Assembly: GCA_964619725.1 (NCBI GenBank)
Contig: CAZUFC010000001.1
Coordinates: 32,001-96,000 of the forward strand
DNA from: an uncultured bacterium
GTDB taxonomy: Bacteria; CSSED10-310; CAZUFC01
Direction: 5' to 3'
Length of the DNA stretch: 64,000 nucleotides
The position numbers and the translations under genes are program-made. Of the stretch, positions 1-17,382 are shown piece by piece. How positions within the stretch are numbered: position 1 is the stretch's first letter; the number at the start of each line of letters is the position of its first letter. A model generated the notes under the pieces. It made no database searches and had not been told where the DNA came from. It was given only the letters and a program-made list of their open reading frames with translations.

Positions 1-632
1 GGAACGGATTCTCCGTTCATGGTCGTAAAGGATTCAGCTGATTCTCCAGGATTGAGCCATATCATGCCTTCTATTCCGAGCAGACTGCTCACCAGTCCTC
101 CGATAAGGATAATAAGCAAACCGAGATGAGCGAAATAGAAGCCTGATCTGCCTGAAGCGCCTTTTTTACCTGACCACAGGCCGCTTCTGATTTTTTTCGG
201 TTTGAAGCCGAACCGTTTAAGAGCCGGAAAAACCGAATCCTCCATTTTTTCGAATTCGGCGTCGATTGTTATTTCTCTATACCTGGATTCTTTTATTTTC
301 TGCGGAAATTCATTTTTCTGTTTTTCTCTGCGCATTCGCTCCAGTTCACCCGGCAATCGATTGTAAGTGCAAACGATCAGATTGACGAATAAAAATGCCA
401 AGGCCCCTATGTACAAAGGCGAATGATAAATATCGAAAAAACCCAGCCGGGAAAAAATTCGAATAATCGCAGGCGAATATACATCGTGAATATGCCTGGC
501 TTCATCAGTCCCTTTCTGAATGATCAACGTTCCCAGGATGGAAAGAAGGGTCAGCACGATCAGCAGAAAGATCGTCAGCCTGGTGGAACCTAAAGATATC
601 ATGAATTGTTTTTTCGGTTTGTTCGATTTCAT
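1..632 (-). CDS. resB: Cytochrome c biogenesis protein, ResB/Ccs1 family (System II); 3' end runs off the window
   Basis: Not in the ORF track; translated by hand from ATG at 632 (GGCGGAGA upstream). MKSNKPKKQFMISLGSTRLTIFLLIVLTLLSILGTLIIQ...LGFFDIYHSPLY...NLIVCTYNRLP...GFYFAHLGLLIILIGG matches the ResB N-terminal TM motifs. It lies directly downstream of the multiheme genes. Confidence 0.88.
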   Translation of the reverse strand, partial: MKSNKPKKQFMISLGSTRLTIFLLIVLTLLSILGTLIIQKGTDEARHIHDVYSPAIIRIFSRLGFFDIYHSPLYIGALAFLFVNLIVCTYNRLPGELERMRREKQKNEFPQKIKESRYREITIDAEFEKMEDSVFPALKRFGFKPKKIRSGLWSGKKGASGRSGFYFAHLGLLIILIGGLVSSLLGIEGMIWLNPGESAESFTTMNGESV

Positions 633-657
633 TAAAGAGTTCTCCGCCGCCTTTCAT

Positions 658-1782
658 CTAAATAGAATGACATTTGCTGCACAGTTTCTGATAATCCCCG
701 GCCTTCAATAATCCCTTTGCATTGCTGAAATGAGGGGCATGACACGATACGCAACTCATTTCACTCTCCTTGTCCAGCGGGTCCTGAACTTTTTCTACCG
801 GATGATTGAATATGGGATGTTTGAGGTGCGCGTATATTTTTTTATCGTGACAGTTCCAACAGAGTTCATTAGGAGTCGTTTTGAGGAAAAAACGGTCGTC
901 AGCGGAATGGGGATCGTGACAGACAGTGCATCCTTGAACCTGTATCACGGCATGAATAGTTACTGACGTTTCGGTTTCCTTTTTCATATCCTCATGACAA
1001 TTAAAACACAGCGAGGGCTCATCCGCATGAAGCTGATATTTATATCCCGAACCATGCGGATCATGACATACGCCGCAATATCCCGCTCCCAGAGGACCAT
1101 GAACAAAAGCCTTCTTCTTTGTTTTCAGCGCGGTTTCATGGCATTTGCCGCACAATTCAGACTCCTTTTGAATGACTGCAAACCTGCCCTTTCCTTCTTC
1201 GCTCTTTTCCTGATGACAGGTGAAACAACGATAAGCGCCCAATGGTCCGTGAAGATATTCGGCTTGCGTTTTCCGGGCATGACATTCATTGCAAATGGAA
1301 TCCTGCCTGGATACCGGCTTTCTCGTCGATTCATTCACCGTCAGTTCATGACATTGCCTGCAGGTCCCGTCATGCCCGGCTTCATGAAATTCGTCGGTCT
1401 TTTCCCCATTTAACTCGCCGCTGCTGAAATAAGGCATTCTCTTTATCGTAATGCTTTTCTCGGCTGACCCTGAACCTACAGTGAGGGCATTACTTCCGGG
1501 GACGAGGTCGATTCTCCCATGAGAAAAATCAGAATAACGGTCGCTGCCCGCGAAAGGTTCGATCTTCTTTCCGTTTAATTTTACTTCAAGTGACGTCGAA
1601 GTGGATTCCACTATGAGAGTTATGGATGAAGCGCCCGTCACGTAGCCGTCTAAAGGAACTTTTACGTCGAATTCTTCGGACAATTCTGCGCAAAAAGCGA
1701 CTGATGCAAACAGAATGATCATGCCTGTCACTATTCTGCAACCATAATCGCCCATGCCCATATAATTTGTCCTGCGATTCAA
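658..1782 (-). CDS. Decaheme cytochrome c with N-terminal Ig-like region (cytochrome c3 / doubled-CxxCH type)
   Basis: 10 CxxCH motifs, HGP...CxxCHxPH repeats and a signal-like hydrophobic segment. The true start may be a downstream ATG. Confidence 0.9.
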   Translation of the reverse strand: MNRRTNYMGMGDYGCRIVTGMIILFASVAFCAELSEEFDVKVPLDGYVTGASSITLIVESTSTSLEVKLNGKKIEPFAGSDRYSDFSHGRIDLVPGSNALTVGSGSAEKSITIKRMPYFSSGELNGEKTDEFHEAGHDGTCRQCHELTVNESTRKPVSRQDSICNECHARKTQAEYLHGPLGAYRCFTCHQEKSEEGKGRFAVIQKESELCGKCHETALKTKKKAFVHGPLGAGYCGVCHDPHGSGYKYQLHADEPSLCFNCHEDMKKETETSVTIHAVIQVQGCTVCHDPHSADDRFFLKTTPNELCWNCHDKKIYAHLKHPIFNHPVEKVQDPLDKESEMSCVSCHAPHFSNAKGLLKAGDYQKLCSKCHSI

Positions 1783-1813
1783 ACTATCTCGACCTCAACG
1801 GTCAGTATTGCCC

Positions 1814-3496
1814 TCAGCGATAACTCACCGGATTCTTCCTGTCATAATCGAAGGGCTTGTGACAACCTACAATGCACCCGCCGCCCGTTTCCGTTTTCGT
1901 ATACTTAATTGGATAACTCCACATCTTACCGTACGGAACTTCTTCCCGTATATGCTTCCTCTGCGATCCCGCATGTATCTCATGACAGGCTTTGCAGCTT
2001 CGGCCCTTTCTCTCCTTGTTCACATGCACGTAATGAAGATTGCGGTCCCCGTTCCTGAAACCGGTCATATCATCGGTCCGCGCCTTTTTAGCTATGTCCG
2101 AACTGTGACAATCAAAACAGAGCGCATAATTTTCCTCATCATAGGAAACATAAAATTCATCAGGAAAATATTTCGTCAACAAATTCGGTTGCGTTGCCCC
2201 ATGCGTAAGGTGACACGAACCGCAATCTCCCCCTTCTACAGGACCATGCTGATATTCACTCGCCTTTACTTGAGCGCCCATTTCCTTGTGACAGATAAAA
2301 CATATTTCTTCCGATGATGCTTTTAAAAGGCTTGAGTGGGCCGAAGCATGAGCATCGTGACATTCTCCGCACCGGCCTTCCTGAACCGGTTCATGCCCCA
2401 CCGTCACCTGCTCCAGTTTCGCTGCAAAATCAGGCGTCATATCCTTGTGACACTCCATGCAGAATTTATCCTCCGCCGCAAAAAGCATGTTGGGGTGATT
2501 CGATGAATGAGCGTTATGACATTCCGTGCAGCCCTGAAACACAATCATATGCAGTGATTTGTCCTCGAATTCCTCCTTCTTGTCGGAGTGACAGGAATAA
2601 CAAGCTTCATTACCGTCCGCGCTCAACAGGGCTGCATGATCGGTCGAATGAGGATCATGACACATGGAACATTCCAGCATCTGAACAGGCGTATGAACCA
2701 CTTCGCCTCCCGTTATCGCTTCCTTTCCATGACACTCAAAACATAATTCGCTCTCGCTGTCATGCAGCAATTGATACCTGACCTCGGATTCATGCGGCGA
2801 ATGACAACCCGTGCATTCGCCCGCATCCAGCGGATAATGAATGTTGCTCTTCTTCCAGAAAGACTCAGCATCCACATGACATACAAGACATAATGATTTG
2901 TCCTCACGAGACAACTCATTCTCATCAAATGAACCATGAGGATTATGACAGTGTATGCACACTCCGGCCCCTACCGGCCCATGCACATACTGTTTTCGGC
3001 CCATATCAGAATGACAGTTCCCCGTCCCGCACGTCGAAACCGGCTTGATCATTCGATAACTCTCTTTCCCGGTCCCTGTTTCATGACATTCGGAACAACG
3101 TTCCATAACAGAAATGCCATCATGACGGTAGAATCTCCGGTAACCTGCCTTCGACGTCTCTCCACGGCGTAAAACATATGCCTCAACCTCCACCGATTCC
3201 AATTCCGAATCCAAGGCTTTCACCTCTATCACGCATTCACCACGCTTCAACTCCACCAGCTTCGAAAACGTCCCGTTCTCTACCCTGACCGTCCGGTCAC
3301 CCGGAGCCTTCCCGTTCGAAACAGAAAATTTTACCTCTTTCACCCCGGAAGGAACCGTCCCGACAACCTCAAAGACGCCCTCTTCCAACGCACTCTTTTC
3401 AGGAGGATAAATTATCCGGAATTCCTCCTCAGCCTCCGCCGAAAAAAACGGCATAATTAAAAAACACAGCATTACGATTAAAATTATCCTCAACAT
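1814..3496 (-). CDS. Multiheme cytochrome c, 14 CxxCH plus 2 atypical motifs
   Basis: Sec signal ending AEA; 14 CxxCH plus CGTGNCH and CIVGCH; AGGAG RBS upstream. Confidence 0.92.
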   Translation of the reverse strand: MLRIILIVMLCFLIMPFFSAEAEEEFRIIYPPEKSALEEGVFEVVGTVPSGVKEVKFSVSNGKAPGDRTVRVENGTFSKLVELKRGECVIEVKALDSELESVEVEAYVLRRGETSKAGYRRFYRHDGISVMERCSECHETGTGKESYRMIKPVSTCGTGNCHSDMGRKQYVHGPVGAGVCIHCHNPHGSFDENELSREDKSLCLVCHVDAESFWKKSNIHYPLDAGECTGCHSPHESEVRYQLLHDSESELCFECHGKEAITGGEVVHTPVQMLECSMCHDPHSTDHAALLSADGNEACYSCHSDKKEEFEDKSLHMIVFQGCTECHNAHSSNHPNMLFAAEDKFCMECHKDMTPDFAAKLEQVTVGHEPVQEGRCGECHDAHASAHSSLLKASSEEICFICHKEMGAQVKASEYQHGPVEGGDCGSCHLTHGATQPNLLTKYFPDEFYVSYDEENYALCFDCHSSDIAKKARTDDMTGFRNGDRNLHYVHVNKERKGRSCKACHEIHAGSQRKHIREEVPYGKMWSYPIKYTKTETGGGCIVGCHKPFDYDRKNPVSYR

Positions 3497-3559
3497 TTGC
3501 TCACTCCTATTTCCCGCTTCCTTTTATCAGACCCCGGCGGTTTTGACAACCGGTTTTAT

Positions 3560-4894
3560 GGAATTCAACCACGAATCATAATAATACCGGAATTCAACCG
3601 AGAATCACCCGAATCGCACGAATAAGAAGGGCAGATTTAACCCGTATCGCTTGTCGTCTGGGTTCGGGTCACATCGGATACTGCGAAAAATGTTCATTGA
3701 TGACTATATTCTTCTGATTCGATTGGTTCGGGAGATTCGCGGTTCCCAAAAAATACAACCACTGCAAATAAAACTACCCTATGCAAGGCTTTTACGGCGT
3801 TTCATCTGTACATTTGACGGAATTCAACCACGAATCTCACGAATCGCACGAATAAGAGGGAAAGACTTAACCCTTATCGCATGTCGTTGGAGTCCGGGTC
3901 ACATCGGATACTGCGAGAAATGTTCATTGATGACTATATTCTTCTGATTCGATTGATTCTGGAGATTCGCGGTTCCCAAAAAATACAACCACTGCAAATA
4001 AAACTACCCTATGCAAGGCTTTTACGGCGTTTCATCTGTACATTTGACGGAATTCAACCACGAATCTCACGAATCGCACGAATAAGAGGGAAAGACTTAA
4101 CCCGTCTCGCATGTCGTTGGAGTCCGGGTCACATCGGATACTGCTGAAAACGTTCACTAATGATTCTACTCTCCTGATTCGATGGATTCGCGAGATTCGT
4201 GGTTCCCAAAAAATACAACCACTGAAAATAAAACAACCCTATGCACAGATTTGATGACGGCGTTTCTTCTGCATATTTGACGGAATTCAACCACGAATCT
4301 CACGAATCGCACGAATAAGAGGGAAAGACTTAACCCGTCTCGCATGTCGTTGGAGTCCGGGTCACATCGGATACTGCGGAAAACGTTCATTAATGATTCT
4401 ACTCTCCTGATTCGATGGATTCGGGAGATTCGCGGTTCCCAAAAAATACAACCACTGAAAATAAAACAACCCTATGCACAGCCTTGATGACGGCGTTTCA
4501 TCTGTACATTTGACGGAATTCAACCACGAATCATCCGAATCGCGCGAATAAGAGGGGCAGGCTTAACCCGTATCGCATGTCGTCCGGGTCCGGGGCGCTT
4601 AGGATACTGAGAAAAACGTTCACTAATGATTCTACTCTCCTGATTCGATTGGTTCGGGAAATTCGCGGTTCCCAAAAAATACAACCATTGCAAATAAAAC
4701 AACCCTATGCACAGCTTTGATGACGGCGTTTCTTCTGCATGTTTGACGGAATTCAACCACGAATCACACGAATCGCACGAATAAGAGGGGCAGGTTTAAC
4801 CTGTATCGCATGTCGTTGGAGTCCGTGGCGCTTCGGATACTGAGAAAAACGTTCATTGATGATTCTACTTTCGTGATTCGATTGATTTCGTGGT
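3560..4894. repeat. Tandem array of 230-233 bp units, each containing a long inverted repeat
   Basis: GGAATTCAACC unit starts at 3589, 3819, 4049, 4282, 4515 and 4748 (last one partial), plus a stub at 3560. Each unit pairs AACCACGAATC.CACGAATC with GATTCG.GAGATTCG(T/C)GGTT about 150 bp later. Confidence 0.95.
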
Positions 4895-5194
4895 CTCATA
4901 TTAGACCTGGGTCGGCACTTTGAGCTCCTCTCCAGGATCAATCATTAAGCTGCCAGATGCATCAAAAATGTGTATCGATACATCGTTCCATTATGAGACA
5001 GTTTTATCTTTAAGCCTGCGTGTTAACCGGGGGCTATAAAAAAGGAGTATTCAGGGGAATGAATTATAGGCCGCACTGAGCGATGCTGCAGTTTTCTGCG
5101 GCATTAAGGAAAAGCGTATGGGTCTTATCATGAACTTTCAGCGTTTATCTTGCATGCCGCCGTGTCGGCAGAAGGAATCAGCGGTTAGCATTCG

Positions 5195-5857
5195 CTATTT
5201 ATCGTGGCAGGTCATGCAGAAGGCGCTGGCTTCATTGGATACTCTGAGAGAAAGAGTTTCCGTATTGGGCCCGAAATGGCATCCGGTGCATCCGGCGTCG
5301 TTTCTGGAGACATGGACGTCGTGGCAAGAGCTGCATTCGAGTCTGTCGTTGAACAGGAGGTCATCTGAGATGGTTCCGCCGAGACCCGAAGAGGCTGTTG
5401 CGGGATCGAAGAGTTCTCCGTCCTGGAGCGACAGACCGGTGTCATAGGTAATGGAGATGGGGTGATGTTTTTCGAAGTCGGTTCCCAGGAATCCGAAGTC
5501 GTTGCTGTTCAGAAAGTGTGTTCCGGTATTTCCTCCGAAGCTGTCGAGGGCGACGGAGCCGTCGTGGCATGAGAGGCAGAGTTTGGAGTGGCTTCCGGGT
5601 TGATTAGGTGTTGCATCGAGTGTCGGGCTGGTGTAGGGTTGGAAGACAGAAGAGGTAACTTCATGGTTCCACAGAGGAGCGTCGGCAACAGAGGTATCGG
5701 CATTATGAGGGATATGGCAGGGTTTACAGATTTCATCGTCGCCCCACCCTGCCCAACTGAAATCGTGATGAGAATCTTCAATGCCGCCGGAAGCGACCGA
5801 ACAGATAATGAAAAGGGTGATATGAATGCAAAGAAAGTGTCTCACAAAAGGTCTCAT
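5195..5857 (-). CDS. OmcE-like small multiheme cytochrome c with a fifth CxxCH
   Basis: Signal peptide; HDFS...CKPCHIPHNA..PLWN..SKLCLSCHDG..HHPIS..LECSSCHDVH..CTGCH..FCMTCHDK. Close paralogue of 14444..15073. Confidence 0.85.
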   Translation of the reverse strand: MRPFVRHFLCIHITLFIICSVASGGIEDSHHDFSWAGWGDDEICKPCHIPHNADTSVADAPLWNHEVTSSVFQPYTSPTLDATPNQPGSHSKLCLSCHDGSVALDSFGGNTGTHFLNSNDFGFLGTDFEKHHPISITYDTGLSLQDGELFDPATASSGLGGTISDDLLFNDRLECSSCHDVHVSRNDAGCTGCHFGPNTETLSLRVSNEASAFCMTCHDK

Positions 5858-5933
5858 TTATTCCTCCTTGGTACGACCTGCGGAAACTGCAAAAATAATC
5901 GGTTTCGATTGAATCACGGACTGTTGCGACTAA

Positions 5934-5949
5934 TGGTAAGAAAATTGCA
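5934..5949 (+). promoter_or_regulatory. Putative sigma54 (-24/-12) promoter of the NHL-barrel-cytochrome operon
   Basis: TGGTAAGAAAATTGCA, with GG(5935-36)-N10-GC(5947-48), 40 bp upstream of ATG 5989. Confidence 0.6.
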
Positions 5950-5988
5950 CCGTGTTCCTTTTTCCTTAAGAAAGGAGTCAATCTTAAC

Positions 5989-7059
5989 ATGTTAAGCAAA
6001 TTTCGTTCCATTTTACTGCCCCTGATATTCATTTTGATGTCGGGTTGCGCCAAAAGGCCGCCGGCGGCGCCTACGGTATTTTATCCTTCGTTGCCTGCCG
6101 AACCGCGGCTGCAGTTTTTGAAGAGTTACAGCAAGGCGGAGGACGTGCTGAAGGCGCCCGGGGCAGTGAGTTCGTTCATATTGGGTGATAAGGAGGAGAA
6201 AATAGAATTCGTAAAGCCTTATGGAGTAGCCGCCCGTAACGGACGCATATATGTATGCGACACAAAGCGGATGTGCGTGCATGTATTGAATCCTGGAGCG
6301 CATCAATACGAGGTAATGGGCAGGAATATTCTGAAGAAGCCGATAAATATAGCTTTCGATGAATCGGGGAGGTCTTATGTAGCGGACACGTCCCTGAAGC
6401 AGATATTGGTATTCGATGCGGAAGGACGGTATCTCAAGTCGCTGGGGGACCCTCTCATGATTCGCCCGACTGATGTAGCGGTAAGCGGTGACGAATTGTA
6501 TGTATGCGACATAAGGAATCACGTGATAAGGGTCTGGAACCGTGAGACGGGCGAGGAACTAAGGACTGTCGGCGAAGCTGGAAGCCAGGAAGGCGAATTA
6601 TTTCATCCCACCAACATTGTTGTGGATAAAGAGGGATATTTGTACGTTTCCGACACGGGCAACTTTCGCGTACAGAAGTTTGATGATCAGGGCAACCACT
6701 TTTTCACATACGGGGGCATAGGTTTTTCACTGGGTAAATTCGCCCGTCCGAAAGGGATAGCTCTGGACGACCAGGGACGTTTGTACGTGGTTGATTCGGG
6801 ATTTGAAAATATACAGATTTTCGACCAGGAGGGGAGGTTGCTGCTGTTTTTCGGGGAACCGGGGAATCAGCCCGGACAGATCAATCTTCCTGCCAAAGTG
6901 ACTGTATCACGCGAACTCACGGATTATTATCAACAATTTGCAGAAGCGGGGTTTGAACTGGAGTATCTGGTATTCGTAACCAGTCAGTACGGACTGAACA
7001 AAGTAAACATTTACGGCTTCGGACGATATGTTCCCGCTAGCGAACAGGAAATGGAATAA
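5989..7059 (+). CDS. NHL-repeat six-bladed beta-propeller lipoprotein
   Basis: Lipobox LMSGC; repeated PxxIAxD..GxLYVxD..NxRxQxFD units. Confidence 0.9.
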   Translation: MLSKFRSILLPLIFILMSGCAKRPPAAPTVFYPSLPAEPRLQFLKSYSKAEDVLKAPGAVSSFILGDKEEKIEFVKPYGVAARNGRIYVCDTKRMCVHVLNPGAHQYEVMGRNILKKPINIAFDESGRSYVADTSLKQILVFDAEGRYLKSLGDPLMIRPTDVAVSGDELYVCDIRNHVIRVWNRETGEELRTVGEAGSQEGELFHPTNIVVDKEGYLYVSDTGNFRVQKFDDQGNHFFTYGGIGFSLGKFARPKGIALDDQGRLYVVDSGFENIQIFDQEGRLLLFFGEPGNQPGQINLPAKVTVSRELTDYYQQFAEAGFELEYLVFVTSQYGLNKVNIYGFGRYVPASEQEME

Positions 7060-7079
7060 AGTTTTCGAGCACCCGAAAG

Positions 7080-9062: not shown

Positions 9063-9082
9063 CCGGAGGGGGAAACCCGGGT

Positions 9083-9673: not shown

Positions 9674-10500
9674 CCGACCAGGGGTCTTTTCGGCGTTATT
9701 TCGCTGTAACATTATTCGGTATCATAACAATGCGGATGTTTTTCGTTTTCGTCAATGCAGATTCAGAGGTCCATAATTTTACGGGCCGATGCGGAACGTG
9801 TCACTTGAATCTGGATGAATCCGTTGAAGATATCCCGGACCGCCTTCTTTTTACAAAGGATGTAAACGTCCTGTGTCGGGAATGTCATGCGGAGCACGAC
9901 CAGAATTCGCATCCGACGGGAACAACGCCGACGATGCTCGTCCCGGCCGATATGCCGCTGAACAGCTCCGGTGAAATAAGCTGCATTACATGTCATTTTC
10001 CCCATGAATCCTATCAGAATCCGGCATCACAAAAGAACCTCATGCTGCTGCGTCGTCGCCGGCCGGGAAAAACGTTCTGTATGAACTGTCATCCCGGAGG
10101 ATTCGAAAGTATGCGTCTCAGTCATGAATCCGTCCTGACTCTCGCACATTCCCGAAAACGCAAATACCGGTCTACAGGAACTGAGATCATAGACAAAGCG
10201 TCCCAGGAATGTATTTCCTGCCATGACGATTCATTTGCTTTCGGGGCGGACATGAGCATTAGTACAGGGGAATGGCTTCACGATTCCGGCGTGAGGCATC
10301 CCATCGGAAAGGCTTATCCGGATACTTTTCCGGATAACAGGTATTACCGGCCTATCGAAACTCTGGACCCCGCAATAAGGTTGACGGAGAACGGCAAAAT
10401 AGGCTGTGCGACATGCCACGACAAATTTTCACCGCACGATAAATACCTGGTTATGTCCAACAATCGAAGCAGGTTGTGCCTTTCCTGTCACGACAAGTAA
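9670..10500 (+). CDS. Heptaheme cytochrome c
   Basis: 7 CxxCH; the C-terminal part (CISCHD..HPIG..CATCHD..LVMSN..SRLCLSCHDK) resembles the OmcE-like C-terminus. Confidence 0.9.
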   Translation: MTDQGSFRRYFAVTLFGIITMRMFFVFVNADSEVHNFTGRCGTCHLNLDESVEDIPDRLLFTKDVNVLCRECHAEHDQNSHPTGTTPTMLVPADMPLNSSGEISCITCHFPHESYQNPASQKNLMLLRRRRPGKTFCMNCHPGGFESMRLSHESVLTLAHSRKRKYRSTGTEIIDKASQECISCHDDSFAFGADMSISTGEWLHDSGVRHPIGKAYPDTFPDNRYYRPIETLDPAIRLTENGKIGCATCHDKFSPHDKYLVMSNNRSRLCLSCHDK

Positions 10501-10509
10501 GGAGCGTCC

Positions 10510-11106
10510 TTGAAGAATCCCGAAAAAAAATTCACGCACAGAAGAACCTATTTCGTCATGAAATCGTTCCAGGCCAGATTTATATTAGTATCCGCTCTGC
10601 TGATCATTGCAGGACTCGCCGCCGCAGCCTGGTATACTGCATACGAAGTCCGGGATGCCCTGGAAAACGCGCTTTATCGCTCGCACATTACTCAGGAATC
10701 CACCGGACAATTCATATTGCCCATCCTGCTTAGGGTTAACATACTCGCCGCGGCAGCTTTCCTGGCTCTCGCCCTCATCATCTTTACCGCTTTGAAAAGA
10801 CGCTATAACTCGTATTTCGAGCGTTTAACGCGAAAAATGAACTTCCTCCCAGACCAGGAGGATACGGTTCTTCCGGCAGTAAATTCACCTTTTTCAGACA
10901 TTGAAAAGAATCTGGAGCAATTCAAAAAAGATGTGGAGCAAAATCAAAGGGAATGCCGCAGCATGATGAAACAAGGACAGGATTTACTCCAGGATATACG
11001 ATCATTAAGGTCCCGTAATGACAAAAGAGAAGTTTTGATCTTAAAAGAAAAATTGGACGCCTATCGTTCCAATATGACAAAAATTTCAACTCGTTATTCA
11101 ATTTAA
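10510..11106 (+). CDS. Small 2-TM membrane protein with coiled-coil tail
   Basis: AAGGAG RBS and TTG start; RRTYFVMKSFQARF followed by two TM helices. Confidence 0.75.
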   Translation: MKNPEKKFTHRRTYFVMKSFQARFILVSALLIIAGLAAAAWYTAYEVRDALENALYRSHITQESTGQFILPILLRVNILAAAAFLALALIIFTALKRRYNSYFERLTRKMNFLPDQEDTVLPAVNSPFSDIEKNLEQFKKDVEQNQRECRSMMKQGQDLLQDIRSLRSRNDKREVLILKEKLDAYRSNMTKISTRYSI

Positions 11107-11108
11107 GC

Positions 11109-12212
11109 ATGAGTGTTCCAGAATCCAGCGAAATGAAGCCGGGCTGCGGACCTGAAAGGAAACAACGCCGATTCAGCAGCCGCCTGATTCAGCGAGGCGG
11201 TTTATGCCTGGGCGTGTTGTTCGCATTTTTCCTGCAGTCGATGCTCTGCTGGACCTGTATTTTGAAAAAGCCTCCTTCGGCAGATCAAATCATCCGCTGG
11301 CCTGATGCGGGGAAGGAGCGAATCAGGTTTTTGAAGACGGTATCGAGTCCGAAGGAAATGGGAGTGGGAATCGGATTAATGAAACAGGCGGTTTCTGTTT
11401 TCAGCGGGAGGAAAGCGACCCGGATAATGCATCCTGTGGGAGGGAGTTCGTATAAAAGCGACGTGGTGGTCGTTTTGGACTCTTATCAAAAGGGCATACA
11501 CCGTTTTGACCTTCGAGAAGGCAGATATAAGTTCATCGAGGGTATCGGGAATGTGAGACTGCAATCCCCGGTTGATGCAGCTTTTTCGAAAGACGGCCGC
11601 CTTTTCGTAACCGATTCGAAAGCAGGCCGGATATTCCGATTCAAAGCCGACGGGAAAGGGGATGCCGTTTTAAAGAGTGACCCTCCTTTGCAAAGACCAA
11701 CGGGCATATGCTACCATGCTGCTGATAATATGATTCTGGTCTCGGAAACCGTCGCCCACAGAGTAGCGAAACTGTCACTTGATGGAAAGCGGCTGGGTTT
11801 CATAGGCCGGAGGGGAACGGGAGAAGGTTGTTTCAATTTTCCGGTACACCTTGCCGTCGACCGGCAGGGAATGCTTTACGTATGCGATGCCATGAACTTC
11901 AGGATTCAGAAATTCAAAGAGGGGAAATATGCGGGAGAGTTCGGAACATTAGGCGACGGGTACGGCAGTTTTTCGAAACCAAAAGGTATCGCCGTTGATT
12001 CCAAAGGTCATATTTATGTCGCTGACTCATTTTTAGAAGCAGTGCAGATATTTTCGCCGGAAGGCGACCTGCTTCTTGTAATAGGACGGCCGGGACATGA
12101 AGCGGGAGAATTCTGGCTTATTTTGGGACTATGGATAGATGAACGGGACAGATTGTACGTCGCCGATTCTTATAACCAGAGACTTCAGATTTTTCGGTAC
12201 GTTGGAGGATAA
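11109..12212 (+). CDS. NHL-repeat beta-propeller protein
   Basis: NHL repeats (FSKPKGIAVDSKGHIYVADS); paralogue of 5989..7059; start uncertain. Confidence 0.88.
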   Translation: MSVPESSEMKPGCGPERKQRRFSSRLIQRGGLCLGVLFAFFLQSMLCWTCILKKPPSADQIIRWPDAGKERIRFLKTVSSPKEMGVGIGLMKQAVSVFSGRKATRIMHPVGGSSYKSDVVVVLDSYQKGIHRFDLREGRYKFIEGIGNVRLQSPVDAAFSKDGRLFVTDSKAGRIFRFKADGKGDAVLKSDPPLQRPTGICYHAADNMILVSETVAHRVAKLSLDGKRLGFIGRRGTGEGCFNFPVHLAVDRQGMLYVCDAMNFRIQKFKEGKYAGEFGTLGDGYGSFSKPKGIAVDSKGHIYVADSFLEAVQIFSPEGDLLLVIGRPGHEAGEFWLILGLWIDERDRLYVADSYNQRLQIFRYVGG

Positions 12213-12214
12213 TC

Positions 12215-13981
12215 ATGATCCAGGGCAAGGGCAGGAACTTATACGGCAGCCAAACCGCATTGATTGCCTGCGGCCTGTTGTTTTGCGCTCTCTCCGTCCG
12301 TGCAACGATAAAAATGGTCGACAGCCCCCATAACCTCTCTTCATCAGGCCCCGGACCGACCAGATTCCTGGACCGTGACGAAGTATGCGTCTTCTGCCAT
12401 ACGCCTCATGTTTCTGGTTCCGAAAAACCTCTCTGGAACGAAAAAATGCAATCCAGGCATCACAAGAAGCACGGTTCTCCGAACGTTCATTCCAGCCTTA
12501 GAGTCCCTACGGGAAAATCGAAGTTATGCCTGAGCTGTCACGACGGCACGGTAGCCCTGGGGACGGCGGGAGCATCGAACCAGCAGTCTTTGCAGAACCG
12601 GGACATGAATAAAGGTCAAAGAACGGATTTGGGAGTCGATCTGTCGAACGATCACCCCGTTTCCGTTCCATATCGTTCTCTTTCCTCATCATCGACCGCC
12701 TTGTCCTTACTCCCGTTAAGCGCCGCCGACCCCGTCAAACTCGATGAAACCGGCTGCATCCAGTGCACATCATGTCACGATCCTCATGACAACCAATACG
12801 GCGACTTCCTGGTTATGGATAACCATAAAAGCTCACTCTGCCTGCAATGTCACAACATACCCCATTGGGCGGGAAACGCACATCATACCTCCTCCGCCCG
12901 ATGGAACGGCCTTCCGCCCGATCCCTGGCCGGAATCCCGGAAAAAGAGGGTTTCAGATAACGGCTGCCTTAATTGTCATGATATTCACGGCGCAGCAGGA
13001 AAAAATGGACTGCTTAAAAATGCTGACGAAAATGAAGTCTGCCTCTCCTGCCACAATGCCAACGTCGCTGAATCCGACATCAAAAGCCGATTCGAAAAAT
13101 TCTCCAGGCACCCCCTGGCTGACTCAATGCGACAAACCGTCAGCCGGAAATGGAACGCTGCCCTTCCCAGGTACGTCCGATGCAGCGATTGCCATGACCC
13201 TCATAACGTCACTACCGCCCCGTCCGGAAATGTCATCGGTAAAATAAACGCCTCTCCTGACGATGCCTTACTGTCGCTTCCTCTTTCAACCGCGACAAAA
13301 AATGCTGAATACCGGTTATGCAGCCGATGCCACGGCGAACCCTCCGAAATGAGAAAACCCTATATCCCCCGACAAATCATTCAAACTAACGTCCAACGAG
13401 AATTCGATACGGATAATCCTTCCTACCACCCCATTGAAGCAGCCGGAAAAAATCCGGACGTCCCCAGCCTTATCCCGCCGTTAAATGAAAAAAGCCGGAT
13501 ATCCTGCACCGGTTGCCACGCTGATGACGACTCATCTCCCAACGCCTCCGGTCGATCAGGACCGCATGGCTCACGATACGCTCCGCTACTTCAAAAAAAA
13601 TACGAAACAATGGACTTCGCCATAGAATCCTCTGATTCATACGCCCTCTGCTATAAATGCCATGACAGAAATATCCTCCTCTCCGATCTCTCAGCCTTCC
13701 CCCTTCATCGCCTCCACGTCGTTGATTCCAAAACGCCCTGCGCAGCCTGTCATGACCCGCACGGCATAAGCGCCGAACAGGGAAATTCCCTCAATAACTC
13801 CAGGCTCATTAACTTCAATCTCCGCATCGCCTTCCCACACGCAAACGGACAATTGCGGTTTCTCTCCCACAGACCCCGGTCCGGAAACTGTACGCTCTTC
13901 TGCCACGGAAAAACTCACACAAGCTCTTCATACGGCGCAGGAACCAAAATTATAAATCGCCATATTCAACGGCCGAAATAA
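12215..13981 (+). CDS. Multiheme cytochrome c (11 CxxCH + CX3CH) with an OmcE-like N-terminal module
   Basis: HNLS..VCVFCHTPH..PLWN..SKLCLSCHDG..LGVDLSNDHPVS..CTSCHDPHDN..SLCLQCH, then 7 more CxxCH and CTLFCH. Confidence 0.9.
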   Translation: MIQGKGRNLYGSQTALIACGLLFCALSVRATIKMVDSPHNLSSSGPGPTRFLDRDEVCVFCHTPHVSGSEKPLWNEKMQSRHHKKHGSPNVHSSLRVPTGKSKLCLSCHDGTVALGTAGASNQQSLQNRDMNKGQRTDLGVDLSNDHPVSVPYRSLSSSSTALSLLPLSAADPVKLDETGCIQCTSCHDPHDNQYGDFLVMDNHKSSLCLQCHNIPHWAGNAHHTSSARWNGLPPDPWPESRKKRVSDNGCLNCHDIHGAAGKNGLLKNADENEVCLSCHNANVAESDIKSRFEKFSRHPLADSMRQTVSRKWNAALPRYVRCSDCHDPHNVTTAPSGNVIGKINASPDDALLSLPLSTATKNAEYRLCSRCHGEPSEMRKPYIPRQIIQTNVQREFDTDNPSYHPIEAAGKNPDVPSLIPPLNEKSRISCTGCHADDDSSPNASGRSGPHGSRYAPLLQKKYETMDFAIESSDSYALCYKCHDRNILLSDLSAFPLHRLHVVDSKTPCAACHDPHGISAEQGNSLNNSRLINFNLRIAFPHANGQLRFLSHRPRSGNCTLFCHGKTHTSSSYGAGTKIINRHIQRPK

Positions 13982-14131
13982 GCGTCCAGATTCCCGCAGA
14001 TTAGAGCAAGGAGTACCGGAGGATTGCGGAAGCATACCGGCGCCATGTTGAGCAAGCCCGCAGGGAGCAGCGCTTGATGGTAAGGTGATATGGACGTTCG
14101 TTACAGGGTTTGTATGAAAAATCCGGGTTGA
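13982..14131. repeat. Degenerate palindromic intergenic element (MITE-like)
   Basis: CGTCCA...TGGACG arms. The core GCAAGGA..GGATTGCG..TGAGCAAGCCCG loosely resembles the reverse complement of 35310-35390. Confidence 0.35.
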
Positions 14132-14364
14132 AACCGTATTGTAATGAAAGTTGTCTCATTATAGTTTTGAAACACACCGGCGGGGCTGCTTTCTTCTAAC
14201 TTCCAGTCTTTGCAGTAATTTCCTGTTCAAATGGCGATGAACGGTCCGCTGCGGGTTATTTCAGGAAAAAAGAGGATCGAAATATGTGAATTTTTATTTC
14301 GGCATGAATGAAACCTTGGGAACAGGATGATAGAGGATAGCGTCTCTGTTCGGACATGAGTGAC

Positions 14365-14380
14365 GGGCAGGAAAATTGCA
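14365..14380 (+). promoter_or_regulatory. Putative sigma54 promoter of the omcE-like gene
   Basis: GGGCAGGAAAATTGCA, with GG(14366-67)-N10-GC(14378-79). Shares GAAAATTGCA with the 5934 site. Confidence 0.65.
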
Positions 14381-14443
14381 TATTTTATTCTGATGAGAAC
14401 TTTTTTTGAAATGATACATTTTAATGGAGGAAATAGGAGGATT

Positions 14444-15073
14444 ATGAAAAAAGTATTATTTACAATGGGAGTTGCGGCAGTAGTGACGGCAATAATGAGT
14501 CTGGGAACGACGAGTTTTGCGGGCATAGTTGGTTCAGCGCATGATTTTTCTGCTGAAGCGTGGTCCGGCGGCAGGATTTGCATTGTTTGTCATACGCCTC
14601 ATAATGCAGACACGAGCATATCGGAAGCGCCCTTGTGGAATCATGAATTAACGACAGCGACCTTTACGCTGTATTCCAGTCCGACGTTGGATGCGACGCT
14701 CGGACAGCCCGGCGGAGCGTCGAAGCTTTGTTTAAGTTGTCATGACGGGACGGTAGCGATAGACAGTTTCGGAGGAGCGACGGGTACCGAGTTCATAACG
14801 GGTGCGGCTCTGTTAGGAACTGATTTAGCGAACGACCATCCGATTTCATTCACTTATGATACGGCGTTAGCGACGCAGGACGGCGAATTGTTCGATCCGG
14901 CGACCGCTCCCAGCGGATTGGGCGGAACGATTGACGATGATATGCTTTTTGAGGACATGATGCAGTGCGCATCCTGTCACGACGTCCACAACACGGTGAG
15001 TGAGGGCAACCAGAAGTTGCTGGTGATAGACAATACGGGCAGTCTTTTGTGCCTGACATGCCATGACAAGTAG
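14444..15073 (+). CDS. omcE: OmcE-like tetraheme cytochrome c (candidate nanowire subunit)
   Basis: Start moved to ATG 14444 after AGGAGG; signal ends SFA. Motif order HDFS, ICIVCHTPHNA, PLWN, FTLYSS, LCLSCHDG, LGTDLANDHPI, CASCHDVHN, SLLCLTCHDK matches what I recall of Geobacter OmcE. Confidence 0.8.
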   Translation: MKKVLFTMGVAAVVTAIMSLGTTSFAGIVGSAHDFSAEAWSGGRICIVCHTPHNADTSISEAPLWNHELTTATFTLYSSPTLDATLGQPGGASKLCLSCHDGTVAIDSFGGATGTEFITGAALLGTDLANDHPISFTYDTALATQDGELFDPATAPSGLGGTIDDDMLFEDMMQCASCHDVHNTVSEGNQKLLVIDNTGSLLCLTCHDK

Positions 15074-15121
15074 AACAAGGAACGCTATTCTTTTCTAACG
15101 AATAACAAGAGCTCAGCTAAC

Positions 15122-15166
15122 ATCAAACGGCATTTTCCGCAAGGGAAGATGCCGTTTGATTTTTTT
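15122..15166 (+). terminator. Intrinsic terminator after the omcE-like gene
   Basis: ATCAAACGGCATTTTCC-GCAA-GGGAAGATGCCGTTTGAT hairpin followed by a T-run. Confidence 0.85.
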
Positions 15167-15179
15167 GTTCTTCGTTTTT

Positions 15180-17039
15180 TTATTTTTTCAAATAGCGATA
15201 GAGAGTAGCTCTTCCGATTTTCAGGAGCGCCGCCGCTTTTACTTTATTGCCGCCGGTTTGCTTGAGCGCATCGAGGACGATTTCACGGGAGAGTTTTTTA
15301 GGTCGTCCTGCTTTGGGTTGTTTTTCTTTTTCTGAGGATTTCTTTGATATGTAGTGGGGCAGGTGGCAGGATTCCAGTGTAATGCTTTTGCATTTGATGG
15401 CGGCATATTGAAGTGCATTTTGCAGTTGCCTGATGTTTCCCGGCCAGGAGAAGTCGCGTAAAGCTGACAGAAAATCGGGCGAGCAGGTTATTTTGCGTCC
15501 GAATTCAGTAGCCAGTCCCTGGAGGAAAAAGTCCACCAGGAGATCGATGTCATCGAGGCGTTCGCGCAAAGGCGGAAGAGTAATCGGGAATCCGCACACC
15601 CGGTAATAGAGGTCTTCACGGAATTTACGTTTTCTCATCAGTTCTTCCAGGTTTCTATTGGTGGCGCTTATGACGCGGACATCAACCTTTTTAGTCTGTT
15701 CGCTTCCGACGCTCGAAAAGACGCCGCTTTGGAGGACCCGAAGGATTTTCACCTGCATGAAAAGACTCAGTTCACCGATTTCATCCAGGAAAATTGTTCC
15801 TCCGTCAGCCAGTTCGAACCTCCCTTTTTTATCCCTGACTGCGCCGGTAAAAGCGCCTTTGACGTGTCCGAACAGCTCGCTTTCCAGAAGTCCTTCGGGA
15901 ATGGCGCCGCAGTTGATAACTACAAAAGTTTTTTTTCTTCTTTTGCTGATCTTGTGGATGGCTTCCGCCACCAGCTCCTTGCCGGTACCGCTTTCGCCCT
16001 GGATAAGAACGGAGACGTCGGTAGGACCTACATCCTTTATGTTCTCGAATATCTCACGGATAAGCGAAGATTTTCCCACCACTCCCATGAAGTGATTTTT
16101 GGGATTATATCTTGTTTTTTTCTTTTCGCTGCGCTCAAAATCCCGGATGGAAACAACAGCGCCGATAACCTTCTCATTACAGTTCCTTATCGGCATGATT
16201 GAGATTTCGGCCGGACGTCTTTTTCCGTTTCTTAACTCTATCTGACGAAAATACCGGAACGCGTCGAATGAATTGCTTGCAGCTTCATAAAAAGGGCATT
16301 CGGAACCGCACAACGACCTGGGAAAAACTTTACGGCATTCCTTTCCCAGCACTTCTTCCCTCGAATACCCGAAAATAAGCTCTGCAGAACGGTTGAAATA
16401 AGTTATGCGCCCATGCTGATCGTGAATGACCATGGCTGAATCCGCATTTTCAAGATAGGACAGCCATTTAATCCGGTTTGACTTCAGTACGTTTATATTG
16501 CCCTTCATCAGGAGGTCCTTTATTTTAACCTCCAATCGGCGCCTCATATCCTCATATCGTTCGTCAGCAAATTCTTCATTACCTTCCCGCTCTCTATCAT
16601 AGGAAAAATCAGACCAGTGAATTATTGAAGGATTCCCCGGAAGAGCCTGCCATGGTTCAATGATACATTCTTCAAATGTTACGATGACGTCGCTGTTGAT
16701 GATTTTATTGATGGTGACGAATTGTGAAGACGCTTCGGCAATATTGAATCCTTTTTTTTTCAATGCTTTTAACACGCCCTCGTTCGGTTTTTCACTGTCC
16801 GTCACCGCGCATTCCACCCGGAAATCTCCCGGTAATTCTTGCTCGGCTATTGATTTGGATATCAGGCTTAATCCGTTCCGCCCCGACGATATGAACAAAA
16901 TATTCATCATCTTTTTCCGTAATTTATCACCTGGCTTATTCTGAAGATTATTATCGTCTGAAATCACGGAATTCTTTTCATTCCGCTGCCAGTCATCATT
17001 TTTAAAGCGCTGCCCAGAATCAGAAGATTCTATTCTCAT
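15180..17039 (-). CDS. Sigma54-dependent enhancer-binding protein (ArsC/LMW-PTP-like + PAS + AAA+ + Fis HTH)
   Basis: GESGTGKE, ESELFGHVKGAFTGA, FLDEIGE, WPGNIRQL and a C-terminal HTH; PAS (FNRSAELIFGYSREEVLGK). True start is probably ATG 16910. Confidence 0.93.
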   Translation of the reverse strand: MRIESSDSGQRFKNDDWQRNEKNSVISDDNNLQNKPGDKLRKKMMNILFISSGRNGLSLISKSIAEQELPGDFRVECAVTDSEKPNEGVLKALKKKGFNIAEASSQFVTINKIINSDVIVTFEECIIEPWQALPGNPSIIHWSDFSYDREREGNEEFADERYEDMRRRLEVKIKDLLMKGNINVLKSNRIKWLSYLENADSAMVIHDQHGRITYFNRSAELIFGYSREEVLGKECRKVFPRSLCGSECPFYEAASNSFDAFRYFRQIELRNGKRRPAEISIMPIRNCNEKVIGAVVSIRDFERSEKKKTRYNPKNHFMGVVGKSSLIREIFENIKDVGPTDVSVLIQGESGTGKELVAEAIHKISKRRKKTFVVINCGAIPEGLLESELFGHVKGAFTGAVRDKKGRFELADGGTIFLDEIGELSLFMQVKILRVLQSGVFSSVGSEQTKKVDVRVISATNRNLEELMRKRKFREDLYYRVCGFPITLPPLRERLDDIDLLVDFFLQGLATEFGRKITCSPDFLSALRDFSWPGNIRQLQNALQYAAIKCKSITLESCHLPHYISKKSSEKEKQPKAGRPKKLSREIVLDALKQTGGNKVKAAALLKIGRATLYRYLKK

Positions 17040-17176
17040 ATAAAAGAATTGTTGTATAAAGTCAAGAGACCATCAGTTTCTCTTTTCCTGAGACGGAGAG
17101 AGAGATGCTTTTGCTGAGACGAGACGGACGGGGCAGTTCAACGCGGGCTTTGGGGGATTGTTTTACTTTTGATTTC

Positions 17177-17204
17177 TTGACTTTTGTGCGCCGATTATTA
17201 TGAT
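17177..17204 (+). promoter_or_regulatory. Putative sigma70 promoter
   Basis: TTGACT-N16-TATGAT upstream of the 17383 gene. Confidence 0.45.
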
Positions 17205-17382
17205 TAAATTCAGATACTTCCGACTGGATAAGAATGGGTCAGCGAAGTCTCCATACATAATTGCCAGTGATCCGTAAATCCAGACAAGGGTTAACATCCG
17301 TCGCTTCTGCATTCTCATTTACAGACCGGCCATTTTTATCAGTCGAAAAGCGTCAAAGAAAAGAAAACGACAGGAGGAAATA

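Follow-up and report, generated by a model that had tools for sequence, protein, structure and literature searches.

A probable OmcE-type cytochrome 'nanowire' and outer-membrane conduit cluster in a microbial-mat bacterium

Does the cytochrome-rich block at positions 1..17039 of a 64-kb stretch of DNA from an uncultured bacterium (the window, which is the whole stretch analyzed here) encode a cytochrome filament, as an earlier note on this DNA proposed, and would such a system be new? The block is a genuine relative of the Geobacter OmcE gene set, carried by a microbial-mat bacterium, and taken as a whole it is probably an OmcE-type cytochrome 'nanowire' and outer-membrane electron-conduit cluster. 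All of the genes listed in the earlier note are present at or near the coordinates it gave, and its heme-motif counts of 10, 14+2, 5, 7, 11+1 and 4 match ours exactly. Its reading of a cytochrome-filament-type locus is supported by the homology of the tetraheme protein, by the model of that protein and by the omcE-cluster neighbors; polymerization itself we infer. The implied novelty does not stand. The cluster type is already published (Petersen et al. 2026) and widespread, recurring in more than 12 phyla (79 related loci, many of which are cut contigs), and the present locus adds one case.

Sequence, predicted fold and heme-ligand pattern place the tetraheme cytochrome E4 (14444..15073, plus strand; 209 aa, signal peptide, four CxxCH) in the OmcE family, and it is the presumed filament subunit. 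OmcE has been solved as a Geobacter sulfurreducens filament (PDB 7TFS) and a Desulfuromonas soudanensis bundle (PDB 9YUQ), as given in the sections of Petersen et al. on these clusters (mBio 2026, PMC13712944). Alignment to OmcE, which the earlier note had suggested as a check, gave near-full-length homology to both subunits with the axial histidines kept (phmmer E 1.5e-23 to 7tfs_A, query 10-209 on chain 11-232; 2.3e-22 to 9yuq_N). H33, C46xxCH50, H53, C96xxCH100, H132, C175xxCH179, H182 and C203xxCH207 align to identical residues in 7TFS and 9YUQ. E4 keeps eight heme-ligating residues, the four CxxCH histidines and four further histidines, matching both solved chains; His33 is close to the N-terminus of the mature protein. 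All 25 close relatives examined keep the ligand positions and CxxCH motifs unchanged. A wider set of 106 relatives likewise shows no variation in the CxxCH motifs, H132 or H182, with conservation of 90% or more at H33 and H53. With the AlphaFold2 model of E4 (pLDDT 83.5), Foldseek returned 7TFS as the sole PDB match at E<=10 (E 1.7e-7, TM 0.57/0.59, 35% identity).

No other protein of the cluster is as conserved as E4: it has 44-69% identity across phyla in the related loci compared to 20-33% for the barrel, and this fits a subunit constrained over its whole surface. Its subfamily is separate and tightly conserved (60-72% identity across phyla), and a ninth histidine, H67 in PLWNH, is invariant throughout the close family and is an arginine in both solved filament subunits. 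Petersen et al. argue, in the part of the paper concerned, that nine histidines and four hemes would fit a non-propagating 'anchor' (PMC13712944). Because of this argument and the presence of H67, E4 may, judged from its sequence, be a self-satisfied, non-polymerizing protein. No imaged filament is reported, in the literature examined, for organisms with the close subfamily of E4.

OmcE-like sequence recurs within the cluster. E5 (5195..5857, minus strand; five CxxCH) is a five-heme paralog, 52% identical to E4, that matches 9YUQ (1e-16) and 7TFS (9e-13) and has an additional CTGCH between heme motifs 3 and 4 as well as an N-terminal His-His doublet. The 18 five-heme sequences aligned are of two insertion types; that of E5, 'type A', accounts for ten, all with the doublet, which is present in none of the eight others. 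We found no such split in the sections that Petersen et al. 2026 devote to these clusters, where five-CxxCH OmcE-like proteins are proposed as a possible new nanowire family (section 9, PMC13712944). By the description given there, E5 resembles those proteins in being OmcE-like, of similar length, with a fifth CxxCH and from an uncultured bacterium, and differs in sharing its cluster with a four-heme subunit. A five-heme OmcE-like gene stands beside the four-heme one in 11 of the 79 related loci.

Residues ~7-214 of MHC12 (12215..13981, plus strand; 11 CxxCH and one CxxxCH) are a complete OmcE-like tetraheme module (E 1.2e-26 and 1.2e-30 against E4). This head is kept in 47 of 49 MHC12 homologs of at least 500 aa, and in the tree the heads make a separate clade (47/47, support 0.80). 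MHC12 is a candidate adaptor or anchor for the filament. The C-terminal 100 aa of the heptaheme cytochrome MHC7 (9670..10500, plus strand; seven CxxCH) resemble the C-terminal half of E4 (BLASTP E 8.9e-11 to E4 residues 92-209), and MHC7 homologs occur in four of the 79 loci.

Structure prediction of the 660-aa product of 7080..9062 (plus strand) alone gave a barrel, as the earlier note had proposed. The AlphaFold2 model (pLDDT 82.5) has a signal helix and ~30 strands, a predicted large outer-membrane beta-barrel, with a conserved small insert at ~residues 395-445. Foldseek with this model returned only large outer-membrane barrels, with the best TM (0.40) for MtrB, and VIA likewise placed MtrB at the top (Z 20.7, 412 aligned residues). 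Pfam and NCBIfam gave no family match; the barrel in the cluster of a Geobacter sp. MAG is of the same family (hhalign 99.7%, E 1.1e-25). Since a barrel homolog is detected in 33 of the 79 loci, a nutrient transporter unrelated to cytochrome export and co-located only here is unlikely.

The two NHL propellers named in the earlier note are both NHL by Pfam: NHL1 (5989..7059, plus strand; 1.5e-25), a six-bladed beta-propeller and first gene of a seven-gene operon, and NHL2 (11109..12212, plus strand; 9.8e-30). NHL1 is probably the lipoprotein of the two, with a lipobox-like ILMSGC read by eye only. Both proposed 2-TM proteins, TM2a (9083..9673, with a HAMP-like stretch) and TM2b (10510..11106), each on the plus strand, have two hydrophobic segments in a TM scan, but the start of the first was revised and is most likely the TTG at 9083. 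The two show no sequence similarity to one another. TM2a has weak kinase-linker matches and its atlas look-alikes are 2TM/HAMP hypotheticals; with a homolog in one of the 79 loci, it is outside the conserved cluster membership.

On the minus strand, an operon runs from MHC16 (1814..3496; 14 CxxCH, one CxxxCH, one CxxxxCH; Paired_CXXCH_1 5e-68) through the decaheme cytochrome MHC10 (658..1782; ten CxxCH; Paired_CXXCH_1 3.8e-41) to ResB and CcsA. In related loci, MHC16 homologs with 8-14 hemes sit after the barrel gene and MHC10 homologs after the NHL lipoprotein gene. MHC10, MHC16 and MHC12 have sub-cut-off matches to decaheme models of the MtrC/MtrF and DmsE/MtrA/GSU2203 types. The ResB sequence in the window (System II cytochrome c maturation; 3..632, minus strand; Pfam ResB 8.9e-40) is the N-terminal 210 aa of a 471-aa protein (ORF C1:31217-32632) that runs off the left edge and is followed by a CcsA gene (Cytochrom_C_asm 3.5e-53). 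The cluster carries its own ResB/CcsA heme-attachment pair; a second ResB lies on contig C14 of the genome, and ResB adjoins the cluster in none of the 79 related loci. The bounds 1..17039 are too narrow on the left and also on the right, where a gene for an 871-aa, 11-heme protein follows (17383..19998, plus strand; 11 CxxCH; Cytochrome_C7 1.4e-11; Big_5, bacterial Ig-like, 5.7e-5). It may be one more surface cytochrome belonging to the island; homologs of it occur in four of the 79 loci. The cluster's contig holds ten of the 16 genome ORFs with at least four CxxCH. All cluster genes are intact, and GC across the window is even (0.44-0.54).

The sigma-54 activator of the earlier note (15180..17039, minus strand) is borne out by Pfam as a PAS-sensor protein without a receiver domain (Sigma54_activat 4.3e-70, PAS_9 1e-13, HTH_8 4.1e-10); a homolog occurs in 20 of the 79 loci, immediately upstream of the E4 gene in 16. 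The E4 gene does have the strong RBS ascribed to it (AGGAGG just ahead of ATG 14444) and the terminator, an intrinsic-terminator-like hairpin with a 17-pair stem and then TTTTTTG (15122..15167, plus strand) between the convergent E4 and activator genes. Its own promoter fared less well: no sigma-70-like promoter was found upstream, but a candidate sigma-54 -24/-12 element, GGGCAGGAAAATTGCA, lies at 14365..14380 (plus strand), 64 nt before the start codon. The divergent promoter region between E5 and the NHL1 operon (5934..6010) has two such elements, at 5934-5949 (plus strand) before the operon and 5995-6010 (minus strand) before E5. In all, the 64-kb window has four sigma-54-like sites, and three of them directly precede E4, NHL1 and E5, with the activator adjoining. 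The total of four is no higher than chance (3.1 +/- 1.8), and a site of this kind precedes E4 in only 5 of 76 related loci. Between E5 and MHC16 are six tandem repeats of 230-233 bp (3564..4887); each unit is predicted to fold into a long hairpin (minus strand, z -3.65), and Rfam gave no match. Contig C70 has another such array, next to unrelated genes, and the repeat is probably a genome-wide element with no functional part in the system.

Among the 79 related loci, an NHL1 homolog stands directly after the E4 gene in 64, NHL2 and MHC12 are adjacent in 44 and always paired, and 26 have E4, NHL1, the barrel, NHL2 and MHC12 together. The host is not a member of the Geobacterales, in keeping with the impression of the earlier note. 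None of the 40 GTDB relatives searched is closer to the host than 'same phylum', and its rpoB core is nearest to '[bacterium]' records, followed by NC10, Nitrospirota and Schekmanbacteria (71-72%). Two of 13 same-phylum genomes have an E4 homolog (46-54% identity). The MAG has an estimated contamination of 6.5%, and the cluster and its flanks are all on one 204-kb contig.

We propose that E4 would be exported by Sec, loaded with four hemes by ResB/CcsA and stacked head to tail outside the cell to give an insulated wire of hemes. A heme of one E4 would be completed by the N-terminal histidine of the neighboring subunit, as it is in OmcE. The barrel may serve as an outer-membrane pore or mount, through which MHC10 and MHC16 could pass electrons from the periplasm in an MtrA-like manner, while the NHL propellers may be periplasmic or lipoprotein assembly helpers. 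It is tempting to speculate that the OmcE-like head of MHC12 uses the same subunit interface as E4; MHC12 would then be an anchor or tip that connects an end of the E4 polymer with seven additional hemes. E5 may be an alternative subunit, or a minor one, bearing an additional exposed heme. On sensing a redox or small-molecule signal, the PAS-sigma-54 activator could turn on E4, E5 and the helper units via the -24/-12 promoters.

The same genes could instead make a non-polymeric conduit: a fixed complex across the outer membrane, like MtrCAB/Pcc, built from the barrel, the propellers and the large cytochromes. In this reading E4 and E5 would be monomers at the surface or in the periplasm, acting as terminal reductases or shuttles. 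MtrB is the best structural match of the barrel, the sub-cut-off matches of MHC10, MHC16 and MHC12 are to MtrC/MtrF- and DmsE/GSU2203-type decaheme models, and with nine invariant histidines for four hemes in the E4 subfamily, all hemes could be ligated inside one subunit. Such a complex is what Deng et al. 2018 propose, in the portion dealing with it, for the NHL/cytochrome cluster of D. ferrophilus (PMC5815863). We nonetheless consider a fixed complex unlikely: E4 retains the N-terminal histidine and every other ligand of two solved filament subunits, its conservation fits a subunit with its whole surface constrained, and the head of MHC12 is easier to explain with OmcE-type subunit contacts.

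The filament reading is compatible with electron flow in either direction, as sequence does not fix this and the matter concerns physiology. Uptake from reduced minerals, Fe(0) or syntrophic partners, in place of discharge, is conceivable though somewhat doubtful. Close homologs are found in MAGs labeled Thiodiazotropha, Thiobacillaceae, Chromatiales, Thioalkalispiraceae and Woeseiaceae, and the D. ferrophilus cluster is tied to electron uptake under donor limitation in the relevant passages of PMC5815863; however, homologs are common too in MAGs labeled Geobacter, Desulfobacteraceae, Ignavibacteria and Calditrichota. We find it rather improbable that the block is a horizontally acquired island, maybe poorly integrated or silent, which tells little of host physiology. 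Identity of E4 to proteins of other phyla reaches 72%, well above that to its same-phylum homologs, the tree puts E4, E5 and the MHC12 head each beside sequences of differently labeled phyla, and an IS200-like transposase lies ~5 kb left of the window, whose TamA/BamA-like gene, by contrast, has no relative above 26% identity. The even GC and intact genes argue against this reading, as does the host's addition of its own ResB/CcsA pair, PAS-type activator and candidate promoters.

How does an OmcE-type cluster in this host compare with known systems? Petersen et al. define a nanowire-competent omcE cluster by a large barrel, a beta-propeller lipoprotein, multiheme cytochromes and resB/ccsB, and their section 8 gives the signature as subunit, two propellers, large barrel, multiheme cytochromes and resB/ccsA (PMC13712944). 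The present gene set is that signature, and the Geobacter omcE neighborhood described in the earlier note agrees with these sections as well. With the Desulfuromonadia cluster so described, the locus shares two beta-propellers, the large barrel, multiheme cytochromes and neighboring resB/ccsA, and in E4 the same four CxxCH, four distal histidines and predicted fold. It differs in that E4 is just 35% identical to OmcE and in a separate subfamily with the extra invariant His67, in having four to five multiheme cytochromes where two are described, and in including a five-heme paralog, two 2-TM proteins and the PAS-sigma-54 activator. No glycosylation gene block was seen within 1..17039, another difference, and the host is outside the five phyla named in those sections.

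The clusters DFE_0448-0451 and DFE_0461-0465 of D. ferrophilus IS5, which encode outer-membrane cytochromes, are alike by description in the pertinent part of Deng et al. 2018, with 12- and 14-heme proteins and two NHL or six-bladed propellers (PMC5815863). The cytochromes and propellers are proposed there to form an electron-transfer complex of the outer membrane, one that is conserved in sediment bacteria, and no filament is proposed. For D. ferrophilus, deletions of cytochrome genes in a similar-looking cluster, likened by description, left Fe(III) oxide reduction unimpaired, according to the part of PMC9769857 that concerns them.

With MtrCAB/Pcc the locus has in common a large barrel, best matched by MtrB in structure, and periplasmic and surface multiheme cytochromes; it differs in a barrel without a family-level match, with ~30 predicted strands and a conserved internal insert. 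To our knowledge, the Mtr and Pcc systems have neither NHL propellers nor an OmcE-type subunit. The hexaheme OmcS nanowire is more distant, as neither E4 nor E5 has a sequence match to OmcS chains at E<=1. As set out in the relevant part of an eLife 2022 study (PMC9473688), OmcS and OmcE have in common their heme stacking and one heme ligated by the histidine of an adjacent subunit; the OmcE filament repeats with a rise of 34 Å (review, PMC12954529).

The tetraheme protein E4 (14444..15073, plus strand; 209 aa) is significantly similar over its full length to a solved OmcE filament subunit, which bears out the alignment proposed in the earlier note. Two distinct PDB sequences match it: 7tfs_A, from the Geobacter sulfurreducens OmcE filament (E 1.5e-23, query 10-209), and 9yuq_N (E 2.3e-22), which by length and description would belong, as part of a 16-chain entry, to the D. 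soudanensis OmcE bundle of Petersen et al. 2026. The available text of that paper characterizes OmcE by four CxxCH motifs and four additional conserved His that ligate heme. In E4, C46xxCH50, C96xxCH100, C175xxCH179 and C203xxCH207 face identical residues in both solved chains, as do H33, H53, H132 and H182, and all four motifs and all four His are conserved across the family. The AlphaFold2 model of E4, heme-free and built on an alignment of 106 relatives (pLDDT 83.5), has the OmcE fold, with 7TFS its sole PDB match at E<=10 (E 1.7e-7, TM 0.57/0.59, 197 columns).

Filament formation by E4, presumably head to tail with a His of one subunit completing a heme of its neighbor, is inferred, as are its export route, the direction of electron flow and the identity of the His that crosses the OmcE subunit interface. 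The close E4 subfamily carries a ninth invariant His, His67 in the motif PLWNH (25 of 25 close relatives), which is less than 90% conserved among the wider 106 relatives and is an Arg in both solved subunits. Judged from sequence, His67 could make E4 self-sufficient in heme ligation, and it is mainly because E4 may thus ligate its own hemes that we retain the alternative of a non-polymeric protein, one that we consider rather unlikely. E4 remains a putative filament subunit.

The genes around E4 are those previously listed. The ORF list and the translation of each frame reproduced the earlier inventory exactly, including the heme motifs of each cytochrome: 10 in MHC10 (658..1782, minus strand), 14+1+1 in MHC16 (1814..3496, minus), 5 in E5 (5195..5857, minus), 7 in MHC7 (9670..10500, plus), 11+1 in MHC12 (12215..13981, plus) and 4 in E4. 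Pfam and NCBIfam likewise recovered the N-terminal part of ResB (3..632, minus), the two NHL propellers NHL1 (5989..7059, plus) and NHL2 (11109..12212, plus), and the PAS plus sigma-54 activator (15180..17039, minus). Two small proteins with two hydrophobic segments apiece, TM2a (9083..9673, plus) and TM2b (10510..11106, plus), are present as well. The one family-less protein in the inventory, of 660 aa, is the product of the barrel gene (7080..9062, plus). NHL1, barrel, TM2a, MHC7, TM2b, NHL2 and MHC12 form one operon on the plus strand from 5989 to 13981, with intergenic distances of -4 to 20 nt; a gap of 462 nt separates MHC12 from the E4 gene, which is followed by a terminator hairpin of 17 pairs. 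The minus-strand operon MHC16-MHC10-ResB extends out of the window on its left side, where a CcsA gene follows (Cytochrom_C_asm 3.5e-53), and a second ResB lies elsewhere in the host genome. Of 16 ORFs with at least four CxxCH genome-wide, 10 are on this contig.

An omcE cluster, in the available text of Petersen et al. 2026, comprises a large outer-membrane barrel, two beta-propeller lipoprotein genes in the minimal cluster and at least two further multiheme cytochromes. The window has a gene for a predicted large outer-membrane barrel near the subunit gene, two NHL propellers (lipoprotein status was judged by eye, for NHL1) and four further multiheme cytochromes, MHC10, MHC16, MHC7 and MHC12, with adjoining ResB and CcsA. 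The island may also extend beyond its earlier right edge, given a protein of 871 aa, encoded at 17383-19998 just past the activator gene, that carries 11 CxxCH as well as a Big_5 Ig-like domain and has homologues in 4 of 79 related loci. Left of the window, at 23637-25892 of the contig, a 751-aa fusion joins a CopD-like membrane domain, a cytochrome b5-like domain and a 9-CxxCH multiheme domain (Multi-haem_cyto 1e-31), a possible inner-membrane electron-input module for the island. MHC7 was considered as a NapC/NrfH quinol dehydrogenase and rejected: TIGR03153 scores 27.6 bits against a cut-off of 134.2, and residues 17-80 alone match.

Modeling, with an alignment of 29 homologues from related loci, confirms the earlier reading of 7080..9062 as a barrel at the level of prediction: the model (pLDDT 82.5) has a signal helix, then about 30 beta strands, and a small, strongly conserved insert near residues 395-445. 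Foldseek and VIA-align returned large outer-membrane barrels exclusively. MtrB ranks first on both measures (TM 0.40; Z 20.7 over 412 aligned residues, rmsd 8.1; 8% identity), and TonB-dependent receptors, LptD and ushers come a few Z units behind it. No Pfam family matches at E<=0.01 and no NCBIfam family at E<=0.001. With no family-level match, the likeness to MtrB/porin-cytochrome barrels is one of generic fold; the predicted barrel takes no family assignment from its fold matches.

E4 has a great many relatives: of 8000 scored candidates, 7336 reached E<=1e-5. With one genome per GTDB species, at least 628 stretches matched E4, of which at least 559 were confirmed. The best 80 of these confirmed stretches yielded 79 related loci, many on cut contigs, and all their ORFs were compared by BLAST with the window proteins. 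MAGs labelled Ignavibacterium album and Draconibacterium orientale are among the sources of these loci, which points to cultured relatives. A recurring order emerged: NHL2, MHC12, [sigma-54 activator], E4, NHL1, a small cytochrome, barrel, a large cytochrome and [a five-heme or further four-heme paralogue]. NHL1 directly follows E4 in 64 of the 79 loci and NHL2 adjoins MHC12 in 44; a barrel homologue was detected in 33, and all five core parts occur together in 26. The sigma-54 activator is present in 20 loci, directly upstream of E4 in 16. In proteobacterial and Desulfobacterota-type loci BLAST missed the barrel; in a Geobacter sp. MAG, a 913-aa ORF at the barrel position matches the barrel profile (99.7% probability, E 1.1e-25). 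All the conserved components are thus present in the window, but in another arrangement: MHC16 and MHC10 have shifted to a divergent operon with ResB/CcsA.

Some genes of the window do not belong to this conserved set. ResB occurs in 0/79 related loci, so that its adjacency is rejected as a conserved feature; resB/ccsB adjacency is described for Desulfuromonadia in the available text of PMC13712944. MHC7 has an OmcE-like C-terminal half that is real in the window (E 8.9e-11 to E4), and was rejected as a conserved filament base since similarity to E4 is found in 5 of 100 other cytochromes of the related loci and MHC7 homologues in 4 of the 79. TM2a, with a homologue in a single related locus, and TM2b, to which it is unrelated, were likewise set aside as conserved parts.

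Searching the host genome with E4 gave a third match, inside MHC12 (E 1.2e-26), and BLASTP aligned E4 3-208 to MHC12 7-214 (E 1.2e-30). In the related loci, 49 MHC12-like ORFs reach 500 aa or more, and 47 of them have a full-length OmcE-like N-terminal module (31-45% identity, E 1e-24 to 1e-44); one further such ORF has a match of 33 residues only. These heads form a pure clade (47/47, support 0.80) in a FastTree phylogeny of 156 OmcE-like modules. Shared so widely and monophyletic, the fusion is therefore old and co-inherited.

E5, the second paralogue, has 220 aa and five CxxCH, is 52% identical to E4, and matches 9YUQ at 1e-16 and also 7TFS. It thus combines the OmcE likeness, similar length and fifth CxxCH of the proposed five-heme OmcE-like family, and a five-heme paralogue accompanies the four-heme gene in 11 of the 79 related loci. 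Aligning 18 five-heme sequences with E4 separated two types. In 10, E5 included, the extra CxxCH lies between motifs 3 and 4, and in the other eight it takes the place of the DGELFDP region. A His-His doublet replaces the single N-terminal His in all 10 of E5's type and in none of the eight. This doublet could plausibly ligate the fifth heme.

Solved cytochrome nanowires come from a handful of organisms. We tentatively propose a model, which we rate as possible but rather doubtful, of a wire in three parts, each an ancient OmcE paralogue, that have moved as a set across phyla. E4 would form the shaft of the wire. MHC12, with its complete OmcE-like head and seven more hemes, would sit at one defined end of the shaft as its cap or anchor, and its gene always has that of its own NHL propeller for a neighbor; a protein that starts as an OmcE subunit would be an obvious choice to link an E4 polymer, at one end, with the remaining pathway. 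E5, marked by its His-His doublet, might serve as the tip or as a "leaky" contact subunit.

Regulation of the locus may involve sigma-54. Scanning for TGGCACG-N4-TTGCW, with GG and GC fixed and up to two other mismatches, found four sites in the 64-kb window against 3.1 +/- 1.8 by chance, which is no excess. Three of the four lie at 14365, 64 nt before E4; at 5934, 40 nt before NHL1; and at 5995 (minus strand), 138 nt before E5. Together with the adjoining PAS-type activator, these predicted sites suggest a small sigma-54 regulon. A site upstream of E4 was found in 5 of 76 related loci; this is about 7x background density but shows that relatives do not generally have the element. There is no sigma-70-like promoter upstream of E4 on the plus strand, Rfam gave no match at E<=0.1 over 1..20000, and the sequencing runs listed for 5150..15100 are four DNA runs from one microbial-mat study, none of RNA. 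Between the E5 gene and MHC16, at 3564-4887, are six tandem copies of a 230-233-bp unit with no Rfam match. Within the unit, triple CACGAAT heptads form an inverted pair, and each copy folds into a long hairpin (minus strand, z -3.65). Another array, of three copies, lies beside unrelated genes on another contig of the MAG (C70), and a core of about 37 nt recurs on many contigs.

The host lies outside the Geobacterales, as the earlier note had surmised. The 204-kb contig belongs to a 9.17-Mb MAG (344 contigs, 90.9% complete, 6.5% contamination), and the closest of 40 GTDB relatives are 13 genomes at the level of "same phylum". Its rpoB core shares 79% identity with one protein, about 75% with several "[bacterium]" records and 71-72% with NC10, Nitrospirota, Schekmanbacteria and Nitrospinota. 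A TamA/BamA-like Omp85 protein (928 aa; 41432-44218, minus), paired with a 1417-aa TamB-like protein (44205-48458, minus), finds nothing closer than 24-26% identity in a search of 5.8 billion proteins. These results together place the host in a poorly sampled deep lineage. E4 has homologues in 2 of the 13 same-phylum genomes, at 46-54% identity, and its best matches among the scored candidates (60-72%) are labelled Dadabacteria, Verrucomicrobia, Aminicenantes, Chlorobi, Calditrichaeota, Oligoflexia, Gemmatimonadota and Acidobacteria. Some 5 kb to the left of the cluster, at 26839-27468 of the contig, is an IS200-like Y1 transposase. Because E4 is closer to other phyla than to its phylum-mates and because this transposase is nearby, the cluster was probably acquired horizontally.

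Other features of this genome merit mention. Besides the regular rpoB on contig C180, a weaker rpoB-like open frame of 1903 aa (C78:14707-17577; E 6.8e-74 for its best stretch, short of the family cut-off) may stem from contamination or represent an unusual paralogue. A 731-aa cytochrome with 13 CxxCH (53207-55402, minus), 36 kb from the cluster, adjoins a xanthine-dehydrogenase-type molybdoenzyme operon. Adjacent paralogous exported proteins of about 500 aa (31671-33179 and 33486-34973), both starting MKRLNF and having no Pfam family, sit among C25, C11 and M14 peptidase genes bearing lamin-tail domains.

In terms of homology and gene content, the OmcE-type interpretation is thus supported, and the locus presents the OmcE-type gene set in full, in a deep microbial-mat lineage that is unclassified. 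Taken with the 79 related loci, it shows that more than 12 phyla carry this set as a strongly conserved, mobile module. Novelty of the cluster type, left open in the earlier note, does not survive: the type is published and widespread, so the locus adds a member and defines no new kind. As available, Petersen et al. (mBio 2026; PMC13712944) report OmcE homologues with porin and propeller in five phyla, and five-CxxCH OmcE-like proteins of uncultured bacteria that may be a new nanowire family with an exposed heme. The accessible text of Deng et al. 2018 (PMC5815863) describes clusters of NHL propellers and multiheme cytochromes in D. ferrophilus; later work detected cluster proteins, and deletion of several cluster genes gave no Fe(III) oxide phenotype in the available text of PMC9769857. 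Among the papers listed by our literature search, none joined OmcE with Ignavibacteria, Calditrichota, Bacteroidota or the NHL repeat. The value of the locus lies in its unusual host and in two conserved proteins, the 12-heme cytochrome with its OmcE-like head and the five-heme paralogue with its His-His doublet, as candidates for the anchor, tip or contact parts that are still missing. If MHC12 does cap or anchor the shaft, its head would be the in-cluster "anchor cytochrome" that Petersen et al. sought and, in the available text (PMC13712944), did not find in D. soudanensis, and the start, end and cell mounting of cytochrome nanowires would become directly testable.
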